Source: a virus. Taken from it: a DNA stretch of 64,000 bases. The stretch's first letter is position 1. Each line of letters begins with the position of its first letter. Under the pieces are notes generated by a model. It was not told the DNA's origin, searched no databases, and worked only from the letters and a program-made list of their open reading frames with translations. The stretch is taken from IMG/VR virus record IMGVR_UViG_3300021289_000001. One strand, 5' to 3'. Shown here piece after piece: positions 4,190 to 57,679 of this stretch. The translations under genes were made by a program, and so were the position numbers.

Positions 4190-4840
4190 ATGGATAAGCG
4201 AAAGATCAACGGTGAAAAAGTGGAGCATTTGCGCCAGGCGCGTGAATGGAGTCAGCGTCAACTGGGGGAGATGGTAGGACTGTCGCAAGCCGGGGTCAAC
4301 ACGGTAGAAAAGGAGTATCAATCGCCCGCCAAAGAATATCGAAGTACGTCCGTGGAAAAGTTTATCCGCTTGGCTGAAGCGCTGGACACGTCGTTGGATT
4401 ATCTAGCCGACCGCACCGATGACCCTACGCCGCCGGCAAAGCTCGCCCAGAAACTTGAAATAGTCGGAGACACACCGGCGCAAAAGCAAAAGTTTAAGAC
4501 CATGTTGGACCGTGCTAAGTTGTTGCCGGAAGATGAGCTTGACATGGTGATCCTGCTGCTCATGCGCTTGTCTGGCACTGAGCCGATTGCTCACACGTCG
4601 GAGGCCAGGGCCGCAGCGCAAATCATCGATGCGCTGTCGGATGAGGACCGCGCCGACGCCCTAGCCGCTGTGCGCAACCTGGAAAGTAAAATCAACGACA
4701 ACGTTGCAACGTTATCTGAGCGGATGAATTATTTGATTTCGCTAGTTGAAAGTCGGCTTGGGATTGATGCCCGTGCGGAGATTGAGCGAGATTTGGGAAT
4801 CAGATTGAGTGATAGCGTTGGGAAACAAATCGGCGCATAG
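4190..4840 (+). CDS. XRE-family repressor (CI-like)
   Basis: LRQAREWSQRQLGEMVGLSQAGVNTVE...LAEALDTSLDYL HTH plus helical C-terminal region; no peptidase S24 motif seen. Confidence 0.85.
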   Translation: MDKRKINGEKVEHLRQAREWSQRQLGEMVGLSQAGVNTVEKEYQSPAKEYRSTSVEKFIRLAEALDTSLDYLADRTDDPTPPAKLAQKLEIVGDTPAQKQKFKTMLDRAKLLPEDELDMVILLLMRLSGTEPIAHTSEARAAAQIIDALSDEDRADALAAVRNLESKINDNVATLSERMNYLISLVESRLGIDARAEIERDLGIRLSDSVGKQIGA

Positions 4841-5108
4841 TTTGTCGGTTAGATATTCGCAGATTTCTTCCAGCTTTTTGACTTGCTCAGTTACGGGAAG
4901 ATCATTAAGCTGGGGAGCTTTTTTTTTGTTCATATCGAAACTTTCTGTGATTAAAGTAAGTTCTGTAGGTAAACCCAATGTTAACATGAAAAGGCGATGA
5001 AATTGCCTTACATAATACTTTCCATTATATAATGCTTTTATCCTTACGGTAAGGATTAAGTATATCACAATTCACACAATTAGTTTTTGGTTTGAGCAGA
5101 GAATAATT

Positions 5109-5154
5109 ACATAAATAGTGCCTGTATCTACACGGATACAGGCACTATTTATGT
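5109..5154. repeat. Perfect 20-bp inverted repeat with 6-bp spacer
   Basis: ACATAAATAGTGCCTGTATC-tacacg-GATACAGGCACTATTTATGT. Confidence 0.9.
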
Positions 5155-5251
5155 GCTATAGTTAGTAAAGTATCGGCCCCAAAAAACTATCTAATCGCCT
5201 AGATAGTTAAGCGTGCGATATTTACTTATGAGAATGACCATTCTCTATTAA

Positions 5252-6151
5252 CTATCCGGGCAAAGCTAATAATGCGCTTTTTGCTGGAACAATTCCGCGC
5301 CGATCATAGCTCATTGTCAACGTGACGTTTTTATGTCCAACAACATTAGCTACGGTTACTAGGTCAACGCCGCTATCAATCAGCTTGCTGATAAATGTAT
5401 AACGAAAGTCATGTGGAGTAATATTTGCTACTCCTGCCTGTTTTGCTTTAGAGGTCAAGATCATGTATAGCCCCTGGTCAGTCAACCTACTATCTACAAT
5501 CCTGTCGTTTTTTAGCACACGCCGAAAGATAGCGCCAGGAGTTTTCAGAAGATCTATCCAAGTGGATAAAATTGCGGCAACTTCGTCGTTGATAAAAACG
5601 AGGCGATTACTCCATCCCTTTGTTTCTCTGAAATAGAGAGACTTTGCCCTTACGTCAAAATCAGGTATATCTAAGTTGATAATCTCACTGCGTCTTGCCC
5701 CAGTTGCATAAAGCAAAACAAGCATGGCATGATCACGGATTTCAGCATTGCTCGTTCCGGCGCATGTTGCGATTAGTTTCTTGATCTCGCTATCTTCCAG
5801 AAGTCTACCCGGTTTTTCGATATGATTTTCAATGTCGGAAACATCAGCGGCGGCAAGATAGTTATCGTGACTCATCAAGCCAAGCCGCCAGGCTTCTTTT
5901 AAAACACAACGCAAGGCGGAAAGCCCCTTGTTCACCGTGGATGGCGAAAACTCATCTTGTAGCCAGTCTTTCACGGCCCCTACATCATCTCTATCTAAAT
6001 TATGCCAAGCAAAACTATCGGCGTCATACTCGCCATCGCCCAAGAATTCCGCAATCCTATTCAGGATTTGAGATGTGCTGCGTTTAGAGTTTTTTGCCTT
6101 TAGACTCTCGATGTACATTGAAAAAGGTGTTAATTGTTCCTTTGTTTTCAT
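5252..6151 (-). CDS. Tyrosine recombinase (XerC/D-like integrase)
   Basis: RDHAMLVLLYATGARRSE (catalytic R), HDFR (HxxR), VGH and terminal Y (MSYD). Confidence 0.95.
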   Translation of the reverse strand: MKTKEQLTPFSMYIESLKAKNSKRSTSQILNRIAEFLGDGEYDADSFAWHNLDRDDVGAVKDWLQDEFSPSTVNKGLSALRCVLKEAWRLGLMSHDNYLAAADVSDIENHIEKPGRLLEDSEIKKLIATCAGTSNAEIRDHAMLVLLYATGARRSEIINLDIPDFDVRAKSLYFRETKGWSNRLVFINDEVAAILSTWIDLLKTPGAIFRRVLKNDRIVDSRLTDQGLYMILTSKAKQAGVANITPHDFRYTFISKLIDSGVDLVTVANVVGHKNVTLTMSYDRRGIVPAKSALLALPG

Positions 6152-6190
6152 GTTGTGCTCCTAAATGATTCTCAAAACAAATCAATAATA

Positions 6191-6275
6191 TAGTTATTAT
6201 ATTAACATATTTGTACCGTATAGTCAATAACTAAACTATTGAATTATTGACGATATACATACATGGTGATATAGT
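6191..6275. promoter_or_regulatory. Divergent promoters between the two recombinase operons
   Basis: Plus strand TTGACG (6247)-17-TATAGT (6270); minus strand TTGACT within the TTAGTTATTGA motif at 6224-6234. Confidence 0.6.
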
Positions 6276-6312
6276 ACAAATGTAATTTTTGAGAAAAACA
6301 TAAGGAGGGTTT

Positions 6313-6546
6313 ATGGTTATCAGGGATACTAATATTTTTCGGTCTTTACTGGCTCTGAGGGGTTTGCATCAGCAGATTGATATAGCCAAAAAATTTCATA
6401 CCAGTGAGAACTCTGTTACTCGATGGTTCAAGGGGAAGCCCATGCACCGAGGGACCGCCGAACGTATTTCGGAGTTTTTGGAAAGAGATTCTGGCGAGTT
6501 GTTTGTTGATAAAAGCGCTCCCTGTGACGTGTTGGGGTTAAGATGA
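6313..6546 (+). CDS. Small HTH protein (candidate regulator or directionality factor)
   Basis: QQIDIAKKFHTSENSVTRWFKG XRE-like HTH; SD AGGAGGG upstream. Confidence 0.65.
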   Translation: MVIRDTNIFRSLLALRGLHQQIDIAKKFHTSENSVTRWFKGKPMHRGTAERISEFLERDSGELFVDKSAPCDVLGLR

Positions 6547-6809
6547 ACAAAGAACTCGGCAAACAAATAATGGATGGTATCAAATCAGGCTTGCAGCCGT
6601 TCGATAAAGCGGAATTTCAGCGAGCATACGAAATGCAAGCCAAGCGAGAAAAACGCACAATGGATCTTCTTGGCATTAGCGAAGAAGAACTGGCGGTGAT
6701 TCGCGAGATGAGATGGCAAATACAACTGAATTGTGCTATGTACGGCCATAGGTGGCGTGATGTTGCCGGCGAAATTCAATGCGTATCGTGCGGAGAATAT
6801 AAAAAATAG
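6543..6809 (+). CDS. Hypothetical protein with C-terminal Cys/His motif
   Basis: Overlapping start; CAMYGHRW...CVSCG. Confidence 0.6.
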   Translation: MNKELGKQIMDGIKSGLQPFDKAEFQRAYEMQAKREKRTMDLLGISEEELAVIREMRWQIQLNCAMYGHRWRDVAGEIQCVSCGEYKK

Positions 6810-6875
6810 CCGCCGCAGCGTAATCGGCCAAGATCGCTGTGACGGCTAAAATTTGGAAAGGAAACATATTGTACC

Positions 6876-8417
6876 ATGAGTTCTTCAATATCCTCTGTAA
6901 GCCGCTGTGTTATTTGGGCGGCAGTGAGTAGTGAATCTCAAGCCCGTGACGAAAAGGCGTCTATACCCGATCAATTACGGCTTGGTAGAGAAGCCGCAGC
7001 GCTTCACGGTTTAACTGTTGTTGCTGAATTAATCGTGCCAGGGCAAAGCCGAAGCATTGTTTTGTTCGAGGATGCTTGCAAGAAAATTGCCGCCTATGCT
7101 CAACTCCACAGGATGATTCAGGGAAAAGAAATGGATGTCTTTATTTTCCTGAATCGTTCGCGCTTAGGCAGAATATCATCGTTGTCTATGACTGTGGCGG
7201 AATTATTGAGAGAAGCCGGTATTATTTGCTATGACTTGGAAAGCCCTCCGGCCACACTGACGGCGGATGATAGCCATGATGGGATGTTGACCGGTGCCAT
7301 AAAAAGCGTAGGCGCACAGCGGGAAATCATCACCTTGCAGCATCGGCATAAAATCGGAATGCTTGCCAGAACAGAGAATGGCCGTTGGCCCGCAAAAGTC
7401 CCTTGGGGATGGCTTGGCAATTATGCAACTAGCGTAGACGGTAAGCGGATTCTGATATCCGAGGAAGTAGACCCTGTGGCATCAGCGCACATTCGCCGGG
7501 CCTTGCTCGAATGGTATCTGCGTGATGGCATGAGTCAGAAAATGATTGCTGAAAAGTTCAACGAAGCTGGCGTGCCCACGCCCACGGGTAAGCGCTGGGA
7601 ACATGCTCACGTCGCCCATCTCTTCAATCTCGTGTTGCGCTTTGCCGGTTACAGCGAGATCAACAAGCGGTCAACCAAACGTGAATACGTGCGCGCTAAG
7701 GGCAACTGGCCGCCGATTCTCACGTTGGTTGAAGCTGAAGCGATACTAGCCGAACGTGCCAGGCGTGTACATGCGCCGCGCACGGTGTCACACGTTACCC
7801 TATTCAGCGGCGTTGTGTGGTGCCAACGGTGCAATCGCCCGATGTCAGCGGCGACCGACAAAGGATTCGGCCATGCGTACCGCTGTAACCACGTCAACCG
7901 CTTTGGCGCCCACGCAGACGGTCAAACCAAACGTTCATTGATCAGCTACAATAAGCTGATGGAAGCCGCAATAGAGGCGATTACAGAGATCCAAGATGCC
8001 AGCACACGCGCCGAAATTATCGCTGCCCGTATCCAGCCGCAAGGCAATGACGCCACGGCGCAACTGGCGGCCCTAGATGCTCGCCTGAAACGCCTAGAGG
8101 CCGCCCAGCAGCGTATTGACCGTGATTACTACATAGATGAGCGCGTTGACATTACGCGCCACCGTGCACTATCTGATGACATCCAGCGCCAAATCAGCGA
8201 GCTTGCACGCCAACACAGCGACGTTGAACAACAAGCACAGGTGCAACAAGCCGCCGCTAATCTGGCCGATGATCTGGCAGATATTGCGTCTGTGGGTCTA
8301 GCAAAGCTTGCAATGCCGGTGCGTGAAGCCAACGCTTGGTTGCGCCGTTCGCTGCGCATCTACATGCTCGATTGCGAAGCGGTTCAAGTGGACTTTTTAC
8401 CCCGTGCTATGCCATAG
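6876..8417 (+). CDS. Large serine recombinase (integrase)
   Basis: Resolvase domain (WAAVSSESQ, SRLGR), recombinase domain (NGRWPAKVPWGW), zinc ribbon CQRC...YRC, coiled coil. Confidence 0.92.
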   Translation: MSSSISSVSRCVIWAAVSSESQARDEKASIPDQLRLGREAAALHGLTVVAELIVPGQSRSIVLFEDACKKIAAYAQLHRMIQGKEMDVFIFLNRSRLGRISSLSMTVAELLREAGIICYDLESPPATLTADDSHDGMLTGAIKSVGAQREIITLQHRHKIGMLARTENGRWPAKVPWGWLGNYATSVDGKRILISEEVDPVASAHIRRALLEWYLRDGMSQKMIAEKFNEAGVPTPTGKRWEHAHVAHLFNLVLRFAGYSEINKRSTKREYVRAKGNWPPILTLVEAEAILAERARRVHAPRTVSHVTLFSGVVWCQRCNRPMSAATDKGFGHAYRCNHVNRFGAHADGQTKRSLISYNKLMEAAIEAITEIQDASTRAEIIAARIQPQGNDATAQLAALDARLKRLEAAQQRIDRDYYIDERVDITRHRALSDDIQRQISELARQHSDVEQQAQVQQAAANLADDLADIASVGLAKLAMPVREANAWLRRSLRIYMLDCEAVQVDFLPRAMP

Positions 8418-54971: not shown

Positions 54972-55424
54972 TTACACCTTAGCAAGCGTTATACCTGTTT
55001 GCGCCTGGTACTTTCCTTTGCGGTCGGCATAGGATATTTCCGGCTCGCCGTCGCCCTCGAAGAAGAGTCCAGAAATGATTAATGATTTATCTCTGACTCT
55101 TAATACGACTTCCATTGTGTCCGATAGTTCTTTTGTTTTTAGTATTTGCCACGCACAAAAGAGCATGATATACGGGGGTGATTTCAAAAATAAATCAAAT
55201 GGGATCGTAGAGACTTGTTCGGCAAAATGCCACTCTTTGTGGCATCCTTCACAGAGGGAAATCAGATTGTCCATTTCGTATTCCCCCAGATCCTGTTCGG
55301 CCAAGACATGGTGCGCATGAAGATTGCTCGTCATTCCACACCTTACACAACAGTAGTTATCTCTTGCGTGTACTGCCTGTTTAATCTTCTGATTTTGATA
55401 TTTTTTCATTTTGCCCCCACCCAC
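54972..55424 (-). CDS. HNH endonuclease fused to the displaced dcd C-terminus
   Basis: CVRC...LHAHH...DNLISLCEGCHKEWH; last 30 aa match the dcd end. Confidence 0.85.
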   Translation of the reverse strand: MGGGKMKKYQNQKIKQAVHARDNYCCVRCGMTSNLHAHHVLAEQDLGEYEMDNLISLCEGCHKEWHFAEQVSTIPFDLFLKSPPYIMLFCAWQILKTKELSDTMEVVLRVRDKSLIISGLFFEGDGEPEISYADRKGKYQAQTGITLAKV

Positions 55425-55939
55425 GTTCGATTGTCTCTAATCTCGCGAATCGTTGACCAATGCACGTTAAATGTTCTTCCGATTTCACGCATCGATACCC
55501 CGCCATCGAGCATCTCTCTTATCCTTGGCACATCATCGCTACACAATTTTGCATTGTGGTGATCTGGGCCAAGTCTAACGCCGTTGGACCTTTTTCTATG
55601 TAAAACCCTGAATGAATGTTTCAGGTTGTCGGATGCTGAAACCCATTCCAAATTGCTCGCCCGATTGTCAGACCGAACTCCATTTATATGATTGCATTGA
55701 TAACCATCTGGACAATCACCAATAAAAGCGCAGGCGACTAACCGATGAACCAACATAGGCTTTTGTGCGCCATCTTTGGTTAGACCAATAATGACATACC
55801 CATTATTGTTAACATGTAACTTCATAATCTTTCCAGGCTTTGATGTGCGACTGCCACTTTTGCGCTTTACATTACCGTAATCGCTAACCATATATAAACC
55901 TTCATACCCATTCACATCAAGCCATTTCTCATCATTCAT
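55406..55939 (-). CDS. NUMOD4-HNH homing endonuclease
   Basis: WLDVNGYEGLYMVSDYGNV (NUMOD4), VHRLVA, NHINGVRSDNRASNLEW, C-terminal HTH. Confidence 0.93.
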   Translation of the reverse strand: MNDEKWLDVNGYEGLYMVSDYGNVKRKSGSRTSKPGKIMKLHVNNNGYVIIGLTKDGAQKPMLVHRLVACAFIGDCPDGYQCNHINGVRSDNRASNLEWVSASDNLKHSFRVLHRKRSNGVRLGPDHHNAKLCSDDVPRIREMLDGGVSMREIGRTFNVHWSTIREIRDNRTWVGAK

Positions 55940-55960
55940 TGCCTATCTCCTTATTATTGT

Positions 55961-56040
55961 TATACCGCAGATATACCGTTATTATACCGTAGAACTAGAT
56001 ATTTGCCAAATCGGACAAACTGCGGTATATTTGCGGTAAA
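55961..56040. promoter_or_regulatory. Operator array and promoter between HNH and RHH genes
   Basis: TATACCG at 55961, 55972, 55983; inverted CGGTAWA at 56023, 56034; TTGCCA-17-TATATT. Confidence 0.65.
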
Positions 56041-56051
56041 GGAGAATAATA

Positions 56052-56219
56052 ATGGACAAAAAAGTAAAACGAAGTTACACAATCACAGATTCCGCCGATG
56101 CTCTTCTTGCTCAATTAGCCATCAAGAATGGCGTAAGCAAGACTGCTATTCTTGAATTGCTAATCAGAAAAGAAGCAAGAGAACAAGGGGTAGAAATCAA
56201 GAAACTAGACGCGGGATAA
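56052..56219 (+). CDS. Ribbon-helix-helix protein (55 aa)
   Basis: Below the track cutoff; [44 protein letters not shown]; SD AAGGAG. Confidence 0.8.
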
Positions 56220-56792
56220 AGTTATTCCGGTCTGATTTTGATATTTACCTTTTCTATCCGCATAAGAAATCTCAGGCTCTTCACCCTCAAAGAAAATGCA
56301 CTGCGCAATGCCCTCGTTAGCATAGATTTTGCAGGGTAGCGGCGTTGTGTTGGATATTTCGATGGTGACATAACCTTCCCAGCCTGGCTCAAACGGCGTA
56401 AAGTTGCAGATGATCCCGCATCTGGCATACGTGCTTTTGCCTAAACAAAGCGCCATGATGTTGCGCGGGATGCGGAAATATTCCACGCTGCGCCCCAGGG
56501 CAAAACTGTTGGGCGGAATGATGCACACATCGCCTTTGAAGGGAACCAGGGCCGATTCGTCAAAGTTCTTAGGGTCAATGTGAGTCAGTCTGCCGGTTGC
56601 CGCCGTGAATATGCGGAACTCATCAGAGATGCGCATATCATAGCCGAAGGATGATAAACCGTAGGAGATGACAGATATTTCATCTTGCCAAATATCGTTA
56701 GTTCGATGGATTTTTACCTGTTCATCAACAAATGGCTCAATCATACCGCAATTCTGCGCTAGGTTGCGGATCTTCCAATCTGGTTTAATCAT
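56205..56792 (-). CDS. dcd: dCTP deaminase
   Basis: [47 protein letters not shown]. Confidence 0.97.
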
Positions 56793-57025: not shown

Positions 57026-57679
57026 TCACCACCTTGTTGACCCACGAAAATTAATATGCGTATCGCCTGTGCTTTCAATCGGTCGCCTATACTCCTTGGC
57101 GCAGTCGTTACACAGCGGAAACTTATCAATCAAATGATGAGCAGCGTTACCACACTCGCACCACCCATGCGGCCCATGCCCCCAAAGCTTATCTGGCCTT
57201 TCTTTTTTGAATCGGCGCAAATATTCATAGCAACGTTCGCAGCGCCCTGACTTTTTGCGTAGCACAGCATCCAGCGGTATGCCACAAGTCTTGCATACCG
57301 GATCATCTTGAAAGTATTTACGCGGCCGTTCTTTGCCGTGGTTATACCAATAACGATAACAGGATGTACAGCGCATATAGCCCATGATCGACGGATTACC
57401 GCAATTTTTACACCATCTGGGCAATTCGGCTTCCTGAATCCGCCGTTGCCAAAGCTCTTTTGGTCGCTCAATGCCTTTGCGTAAAACATATTGCCGACAG
57501 GCCCGACATCGACCGTAGCCGTTTATTTGCTCGCGTCCGCAATTGATGCAGGACGCATAAACGCCTCTGGTCGTTGGACACGCTGGACGCTCTGACCCAT
57601 GCCGGTAATAATAGGTCGAACAGCGTTGACAGCGGCCCTTAGTGAATGTTGGGCGCTCGTTACAGATTGTGCATAACAT
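57026..57679 (-). CDS. Multi-zinc-finger repeat protein
   Basis: Four to five repeats of CxxC...GxCxxCYxY...GxERP. Confidence 0.7.
   Translation of the reverse strand: MLCTICNERPTFTKGRCQRCSTYYYRHGSERPACPTTRGVYASCINCGREQINGYGRCRACRQYVLRKGIERPKELWQRRIQEAELPRWCKNCGNPSIMGYMRCTSCYRYWYNHGKERPRKYFQDDPVCKTCGIPLDAVLRKKSGRCERCYEYLRRFKKERPDKLWGHGPHGWCECGNAAHHLIDKFPLCNDCAKEYRRPIESTGDTHINFRGSTRW

Follow-up and report, generated by a model that had tools for sequence, protein, structure and literature searches.

A probable free-standing homing-endonuclease cassette within a phage dCTP deaminase gene

Organisation of the dcd locus

The DNA analysed here is the whole 64,000-nucleotide (nt) stretch of the viral record IMGVR_UViG_3300021289_000001 (hereafter the window), and its subject is the dCTP deaminase gene (dcd), the 3' end of which is followed by two HNH endonuclease genes and then occurs a second time. 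All coordinates are those of the window, and L-numbered loci are contigs used in comparison. The dcd gene (56205-56792, minus strand) encodes a protein of 195 amino acids (aa) that matches Pfam DCD (E=1e-32) and the NCBIfam equivalog dCTP_deam (TIGR02274; 149 bits, cut-off 92.8), aligning through the last position of the latter model. Between its codons 165 and 166 sits an AT-rich insert of 1230 bp (55068-56297), which has a GC content of 0.408 against 0.507 for the window and ranks among the lowest 0.5% of 1230-nt windows. This insert is read here, with a probability of roughly 0.8, as a free-standing homing-endonuclease cassette within the phage gene, a reading that builds on its anatomy and composition, on a clade-wide association of its larger nuclease with dcd, and on gene-end relics at other loci.

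Proceeding from dcd, the insert starts with a foreign gene tail and an oppositely oriented RHH gene. Beyond a region of divergent promoters and repeats, these are followed by a larger HNH gene (HNH-big) and a smaller one (HNH-small) that runs into what is probably the native dcd tail. Codons 1-165 of dcd (56298-56792, minus strand) are assigned to the native gene by their Pfam DCD and TIGR02274 matches, their GC content at third codon positions (GC3), and 70-72% nt identity to L003, L004, and L007. They continue in frame into the putative foreign replacement tail (codons 166-195 plus stop; 56205-56297, minus strand), which is set apart by its GC3, its low nt identity to relatives, and its overlap with the end of the RHH gene and the adjoining hairpin. 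The CopG-like RHH gene itself (56052-56219, plus strand; 55 aa; Pfam RHH_1, E=5e-4, 20.3 bits, cut-off 20.5) is convergent with dcd, and a terminator-like hairpin detected by sequence scan at its 3' end (56212-56229, plus strand) lies within the foreign tail. A putative divergent promoter/operator region (55940-56051), assigned from promoter-like sites and repeats, separates the RHH gene from HNH-big (55406-55939, minus strand; 177 aa), which contains NUMOD4, HNH_3, and HTH_38 domains according to Pfam and matches phrog_59 (E=1e-48). The open reading frame (ORF) of HNH-small (54972-55424, minus strand; 150 aa including the relic; Pfam HNH, E=5e-7, residues 26-65) consists of a body of 119 residues (55068-55424, minus strand) and, fused to it in frame, the probable native tail relic (dcd codons 166-195 plus stop; 54972-55067, minus strand).

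At the left seam, dcd reads GCG CAG TGC / ATT TTC TTT GAG GGT, and at the right seam, HNH-small passes into the relic at TCT GGA / CTC TTC TTC GAG GGC. The left and right breakpoints thus coincide at one codon (TGC/ATT and GGA/CTC), and the CTC-TTC of the right seam matches the Leu-Phe found in relatives at that position.

Origin of the two dcd tails

The initial annotation had noted that the dcd tail is present twice, with 25 identical residues encoded by different codons, and this proved exact: 25 of 29 aligned residues are identical, with a single one-residue indel (an extra residue in the HNH-small tail), at a nt identity of only ~65%. The second tail is detected by tblastn with E=3e-14. 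An assembly artefact was considered and rejected, as two tails this different would not mislead an assembler. The residue identity is unremarkable in itself, because the Dcd tail is nearly invariant among ~120 homologues and any two orthologues share ~75-90% of it; the real signal is the existence of a second, out-of-place tail fused to an HNH ORF. For the same reason, the description of the attached end as "recoded" was overstated, and this tail is more simply accounted for as a foreign copy of the most conserved segment of Dcd.

The base composition of the two copies differs in the manner originally proposed, in which the tail attached to dcd resembles the cassette and the displaced tail resembles the phage. 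GC3 is 0.53-0.73 in dcd codons 46-165 and averages 0.58 in phage genes, whereas the attached tail (codons 166-195) has a GC3 of 0.33, within the lowest 2% of 30-codon windows in the genes of the phage. The relic has a GC3 of ~0.63 (0.80 in its first 15 codons and 0.47 in its last 15), and HNH-small codons 91-120, which precede it, have a cassette-like GC3 of 0.27-0.33. The compositional break falls at codon 165/166, that is, at the same points as the seams. In addition, the last 15 nt of the RHH gene overlap the end of dcd, and because this gene end and the hairpin at 56212-56229 both lie inside the attached tail, that tail is tied to the cassette.

Comparison with L003, L004, and L007, the nearest three relatives of the classical type, points in the same direction. 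Against these, the N-terminal part of dcd has an nt identity of 0.70-0.72, the relic one of 0.71-0.75, and the attached tail one of 0.63-0.67; the fraction of conserved residues with the identical codon is 0.50-0.54, 0.42-0.46, and 0.22-0.35, respectively. Relatives without the cassette, with which the initial annotation had proposed a comparison, are represented by L004/L005, a distant relative (~75% aa identity in dcd) that is collinear with the window over a methylase gene, several small genes, dcd, and two downstream genes, and that carries a tail of the relic type, an outcome in favour of the initial proposal. The relic and the Dcd of L004 (P0012) share a rare DG indel (GDGEPE) found in 2 of ~119 homologues, and only 2 nt separate the relic stop from the gene that follows (91 aa, 54694-54969), the same spacing as that following the dcd stop in L004. 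When relics from separate loci were compared, they resembled one another no more than they resembled intact native tails. Taken together, these sequence comparisons make it very likely that the relic is the phage's own tail and that the attached tail arrived with the cassette. Unlike the relics of L018 and L019, that of the window is undecayed at its conserved positions, suggesting a recent event.

HNH-big belongs to a lineage associated with dcd 3' ends

HNH-big contains HNH_3 (E=1.7e-14), NUMOD4 (E=4e-14), and HTH_38 (E=2e-6) domains and retains the family-invariant residues N83, H84, N96, N105, and H108. It lies outside any intron or intein and has its own ribosome-binding site and promoter-like site. 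Its four closest relatives in a collection of 5.8 billion proteins (68, 59, 56, and 51% identity) come from four independent contigs (L017, L018, L019, and L180), and each is encoded directly downstream of a DCD-family gene. In a quick tree of 120 family members, HNH-big and these four relatives form one clade (SH-aLRT 98), and among more distant family members, dcd occurs within 3 kb at only 1 of 160 loci. No clade member with more than 40% identity was found among 50,697 deposited phage genomes. All five clade members are located at dcd 3' ends, while the collinear L004/L005 lack the cassette, a pattern of patchy presence at a fixed site.

Relics of a classical dcd tail follow the nuclease gene or are fused to it in three of the four relatives (L017, L018, and L019). 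The L017 relic begins at the same codon 166 as that of the window, and its stop overlaps the ATG of the next gene; the L018 relic has decayed (...YNKRKGGGKYQGQTRITLPRV), and the L019 relic (KGKYQAQTGITLAKV) forms an in-frame fusion to the nuclease C-terminus. The DCD-family genes upstream of these nuclease genes (L017:368-934, L018:1773-2312, and L019:267-809) are divergent, being only 22-27% identical to the window Dcd and falling under the dCTP_deam cut-off. Because the upstream genes are of this divergent type, the three relics cannot be local duplicates. The HNH-big lineage therefore appears, from its genomic positions, to live at dcd 3' ends and to leave classical tail relics there repeatedly.

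The initial annotation had placed a free-standing endonuclease cassette in the 3' end of dcd; the insertion is retained here, but the relic-fused HNH-small is probably not its driver. Since its whole clade sits at dcd 3' ends, HNH-big is most likely the nuclease that targets dcd, and this role, together with the link to a clade of dcd ends, goes beyond the first reading of the locus.

Two further observations concern relatives of this family. Between L017 and L018, similarity is limited to the DCD and HNH genes, with dissimilar flanks, and the two genes may travel together. At L181:277-1074, a single ORF (P0276) encodes two complete NUMOD4-HNH_3 nucleases in tandem; it adjoins an E1 dehydrogenase gene, not dcd.

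HNH-small and its fusion to the relic

HNH-small keeps all invariant Cys, His, and Asn residues of its family, which consists of free-standing proteins of 98-135 aa. Its likely ATG at 55409, a start call taken from P0121, overlaps the TGA of HNH-big (ATGA). No close relative of HNH-small was found at all; the nearest ones (45-49% identity) are encoded 12-14 nt downstream of tyrosine integrase genes, not near dcd. These integrase-linked relatives (L013:2816-4097, L015:2-1102, and L016:1-1251) suggest an integrase-linked HNH family. HNH-small is interpreted here either as a passenger or as an additional nuclease that has settled between HNH-big and the relic. Having apparently lost its original end, the ORF now continues into the relic, and the in-frame fusion, which has a one-in-three chance of arising, may be fortuitous.

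Residues 91-120 of HNH-small (55065-55154) are of ambiguous origin. In an ungapped BLOSUM comparison at fixed register, they match Dcd residues 136-165 better than shuffled sequences do (p ~1e-5 to 7e-5), and they also fit the C-terminal helix of the small-HNH family. Taken alone, they score ~0 bits with the hidden Markov model of either family, and their composition is cassette-like. They could represent an older, decayed dcd relic and are kept out of the main argument.

The RHH gene and putative regulation of the cassette

The RHH gene is preceded by AAGGAG 8 nt before its ATG. In the atlas, RHH_3 and RHH_5 clusters are among its neighbours; viral and genome contigs yielded no close relative, nor did PHROGs or NCBIfam. 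The 112-bp spacer between HNH-big and the RHH gene contains back-to-back sigma-70-like promoter sites, namely TTGGCA-17-TATAAT directed towards HNH-big (11 of 12 matches) and TTGCCA-17-TATATT directed towards RHH (10 of 12 matches), in a promoter scan that overall returned no more sites than shuffled sequence did. Around these sites lie the inverted repeat TATACCGCAG/CTGCGGTATA and CGGTATA-type tandem repeats, the latter overlapping the -10 elements. The 11-nt sequence TACGGTATAAT, which includes the -10 box 17 nt after a -35-like hexamer, occurs upstream of the nuclease gene both in the window (55975-56010) and in L019 (800-1000), despite the two nucleases being only ~56% identical in protein. 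Because this sequence with its -10 box recurs upstream of the L019 nuclease gene, the promoter is apparently part of the nuclease unit. Repeats of this kind are typical binding sites of RHH proteins, and the RHH product is plausibly a putative repressor of the cassette promoters.

Proposed mechanism and alternative explanations

Homing is the best-supported account of this arrangement. HNH-big would cut a cassette-free classical dcd gene near codon 165/166, within the region encoding the conserved GIAQ-x-(L/I)-FFEG segment, and the break would be repaired from the genome of a cassette-bearing phage during co-infection. The donor dcd tail and the cassette would be copied in together, so that dcd stays whole while the target site is split, and the resulting hybrid allele would be resistant to cleavage. 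The last 30 codons of the recipient gene would remain downstream as the relic, now probably read in frame as the C-terminus of an HNH-small protein that is translationally coupled to HNH-big. The putative back-to-back promoters of the cassette are probably repressed by the divergently transcribed RHH gene product, as the layout of sites and repeats would predict. Repair that starts at the break fits the locus, because the left and right breakpoints coincide. The right-hand joint may have arisen either through homology with an older relic or through illegitimate joining.

Several observations weigh against this account. The tail comparisons involve ~90 nt each, a small sample, and draw on distant, non-independent relatives. 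At the aa level, both tails are about equally close to those relatives (23.1 versus 21.8 identities of ~29). A close cassette-free relative was not found in any collection searched: megablast against deposited phages returned no match, and the best dcd matches reach no more than 61% identity in deposited phages (tblastn), no more than 62% in IMG/VR, and 78% aa identity among the 5.8 billion proteins. Local composition is noisy, with a low GC3 of 0.27-0.40 also in dcd codons 16-45. Finally, the dcd gene of L180 is classical and intact, with no relic in the 125 nt available downstream; because its nuclease gene follows an intact dcd without duplication over this distance, insertion inside the gene is not obligatory. 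The last two points also favour an alternative in which the AT-rich tail on dcd is the native one and the gene was never split, the cassette having landed downstream and brought the GC-rich relic from an earlier host, and the same may be said of the DNA of the window relic, which over 52-71 nt is 79-87% identical to its counterparts in L017 and L019. Compared over one common stretch of 45 nt, however, the relic is equally near to intact tails (L009, 40/45; L003, 36/45) and to other relics (38/45 and 34/45), whereas the attached tail is an outlier against everything (24-30/45). The RHH stop and hairpin inside the attached tail, the DG indel and 2-nt downstream junction that the relic shares with L004, and a compositional break exactly at codon 165/166 also speak against this alternative, which is considered unlikely.

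The homing account could also hold with the roles of the nucleases reversed, HNH-small having invaded dcd with HNH-big as a passenger, or with both acting together, for example as two nickases. HNH-small is physically joined to the relic, has all of its catalytic Cys, His, and Asn residues intact, and is coupled to HNH-big by the ATGA overlap. Against this stand the location of its nearest relatives, free-standing behind tyrosine integrase genes and away from dcd, its lack of any close relative, and the arrangement in L017 and L019, where the HNH-big homologue alone abuts the relic, and both variants of this alternative are judged improbable. Duplication of the tail in place, followed by divergence and the later arrival of the nucleases between the copies, would require no foreign DNA and would explain why both copies start at the same codon. 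Its probability is nevertheless very low, as synonymous sites are saturated (~65% nt identity) and yet every conserved residue of the relic is undecayed, the attached copy matches the cassette and not the phage in composition, and relics elsewhere adjoin unrelated DCD types, where local duplication is impossible. That the interruption is a group I intron or intein, with the downstream tail forming the end of the mature Dcd product, has a precedent of sorts in the HNH_3-bearing intein of cyanophage CL131 dcd (PMC6293099), but that intein lies at a different site, after residue 132. Moreover, the upstream frame already encodes a complete tail and stop, the insert contains promoters and an opposite-strand gene, and neither a match to an Rfam intron family nor a Hint domain was found, leaving this explanation with hardly any probability.

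Other features of the phage genome

The only other region of the window as AT-rich as the cassette lies at 4900-8417 (GC ~0.40 at 4900-6450). In or near it are a tyrosine integrase gene (5252-6151, minus strand), an HTH_3 regulator gene (4190-4840), and a serine-recombinase-like gene (6876-8417); with the integrase and the serine-recombinase-like gene, the phage carries two recombinases. Two genes upstream of dcd, a 217-aa protein of repeated CxxC zinc-ribbon units (weak DZR matches) is encoded at 57026-57679. Instead of this zinc-ribbon gene arrangement, L003, L004, and L007 have thyX immediately upstream of dcd, and in L004, a 291-aa HNH gene lies just before thyX.

Relation to known mobile elements

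In T4-like phages, free-standing homing endonucleases of the HNH, Seg, and Mob types lie beside nucleotide-metabolism genes and move by intronless homing. They spread by double-strand-break repair, during which flanking markers are co-converted and the neighbouring allele of the donor travels along, and the known T4 examples either occupy intergenic positions or divide a gene into two functional parts. The cassette of the window resembles them in placing a free-standing nuclease gene next to a nucleotide-metabolism gene and differs in leaving a duplicated gene end, which to our knowledge no T4 free-standing nuclease does.

The closer likeness is to the gene hybrids formed by mobile ORFs (mORFs) in fungal mitochondria, described for atp6 of Allomyces macrogynus and for atp6, atp9, cox2, and nad3 of Glomus sp. 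(PMC3630166, citing Paquin et al. 1994). There, insertion of a foreign C-terminus together with an endonuclease ORF has pushed the native C*-terminus downstream; the native end is nearer to relatives, and both ends encode similar protein sequences at ~64-81% DNA identity (PMC3630166). The window has the same parts in the same order, namely a host gene core, an in-frame foreign C-terminus, an endonuclease ORF, and a displaced native C*-terminus, and its presumed native tail is likewise nearer to relatives in DNA (0.71-0.75 versus 0.63-0.67, in a small sample of distant relatives). The differences are that the host is a bacteriophage and not an organelle, and that the nuclease is a NUMOD4-HNH_3 HNH enzyme, whereas PMC3630166 speaks only of endonucleases and names no family. 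Furthermore, the nuclease gene of the window is not in phase with dcd, which has its own stop followed by the opposite-strand RHH gene and the promoter region, although an in-phase nuclease ORF is not universal among the fungal cases either (PMC3630166), and a second HNH gene reads into the native relic.

Invasion of a phage dcd gene by a mobile element carrying an HNH_3 nuclease is also known from cyanophage vB_AphaS-CL131, where the element is a protein-splicing intein after residue 132 (PMC6293099); the window has no intein, and its site is codon 165/166. A literature search found no phage case of a duplicated gene end and no dcd-specific free-standing nuclease.

Implications

The locus would provide a clear example, in a phage, of a nuclease cassette whose foreign gene end preserves the function of the host gene, a strategy so far documented in fungal mitochondria. 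As judged from sequence, HNH-big and its relatives would also define a clade of HNH endonucleases that is known only from metagenomes and is specific for dcd 3' ends, and with the putative target, the GIAQ-x-L-FFEG coding region, nuclease and gene form an enzyme-substrate pair open to direct testing. Elements of this kind give rise to hybrid genes and to isolated gene pieces that may be misannotated as fusions, such as the HNH protein described here, which ends in a dcd tail. A further, tentative possibility, less likely than not, is that this HNH lineage spreads by carrying a linked "immune" dcd, in the form of a 30-codon tail in the window and of a whole divergent DCD gene in L017, L018, and L019, where nothing but the relic of the classical tail would have stayed behind, with the putative cassette-borne RHH repressor holding expression in check. 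If true, a nuclease would be the force by which foreign versions take the place of a core nucleotide-metabolism gene in unrelated phages.

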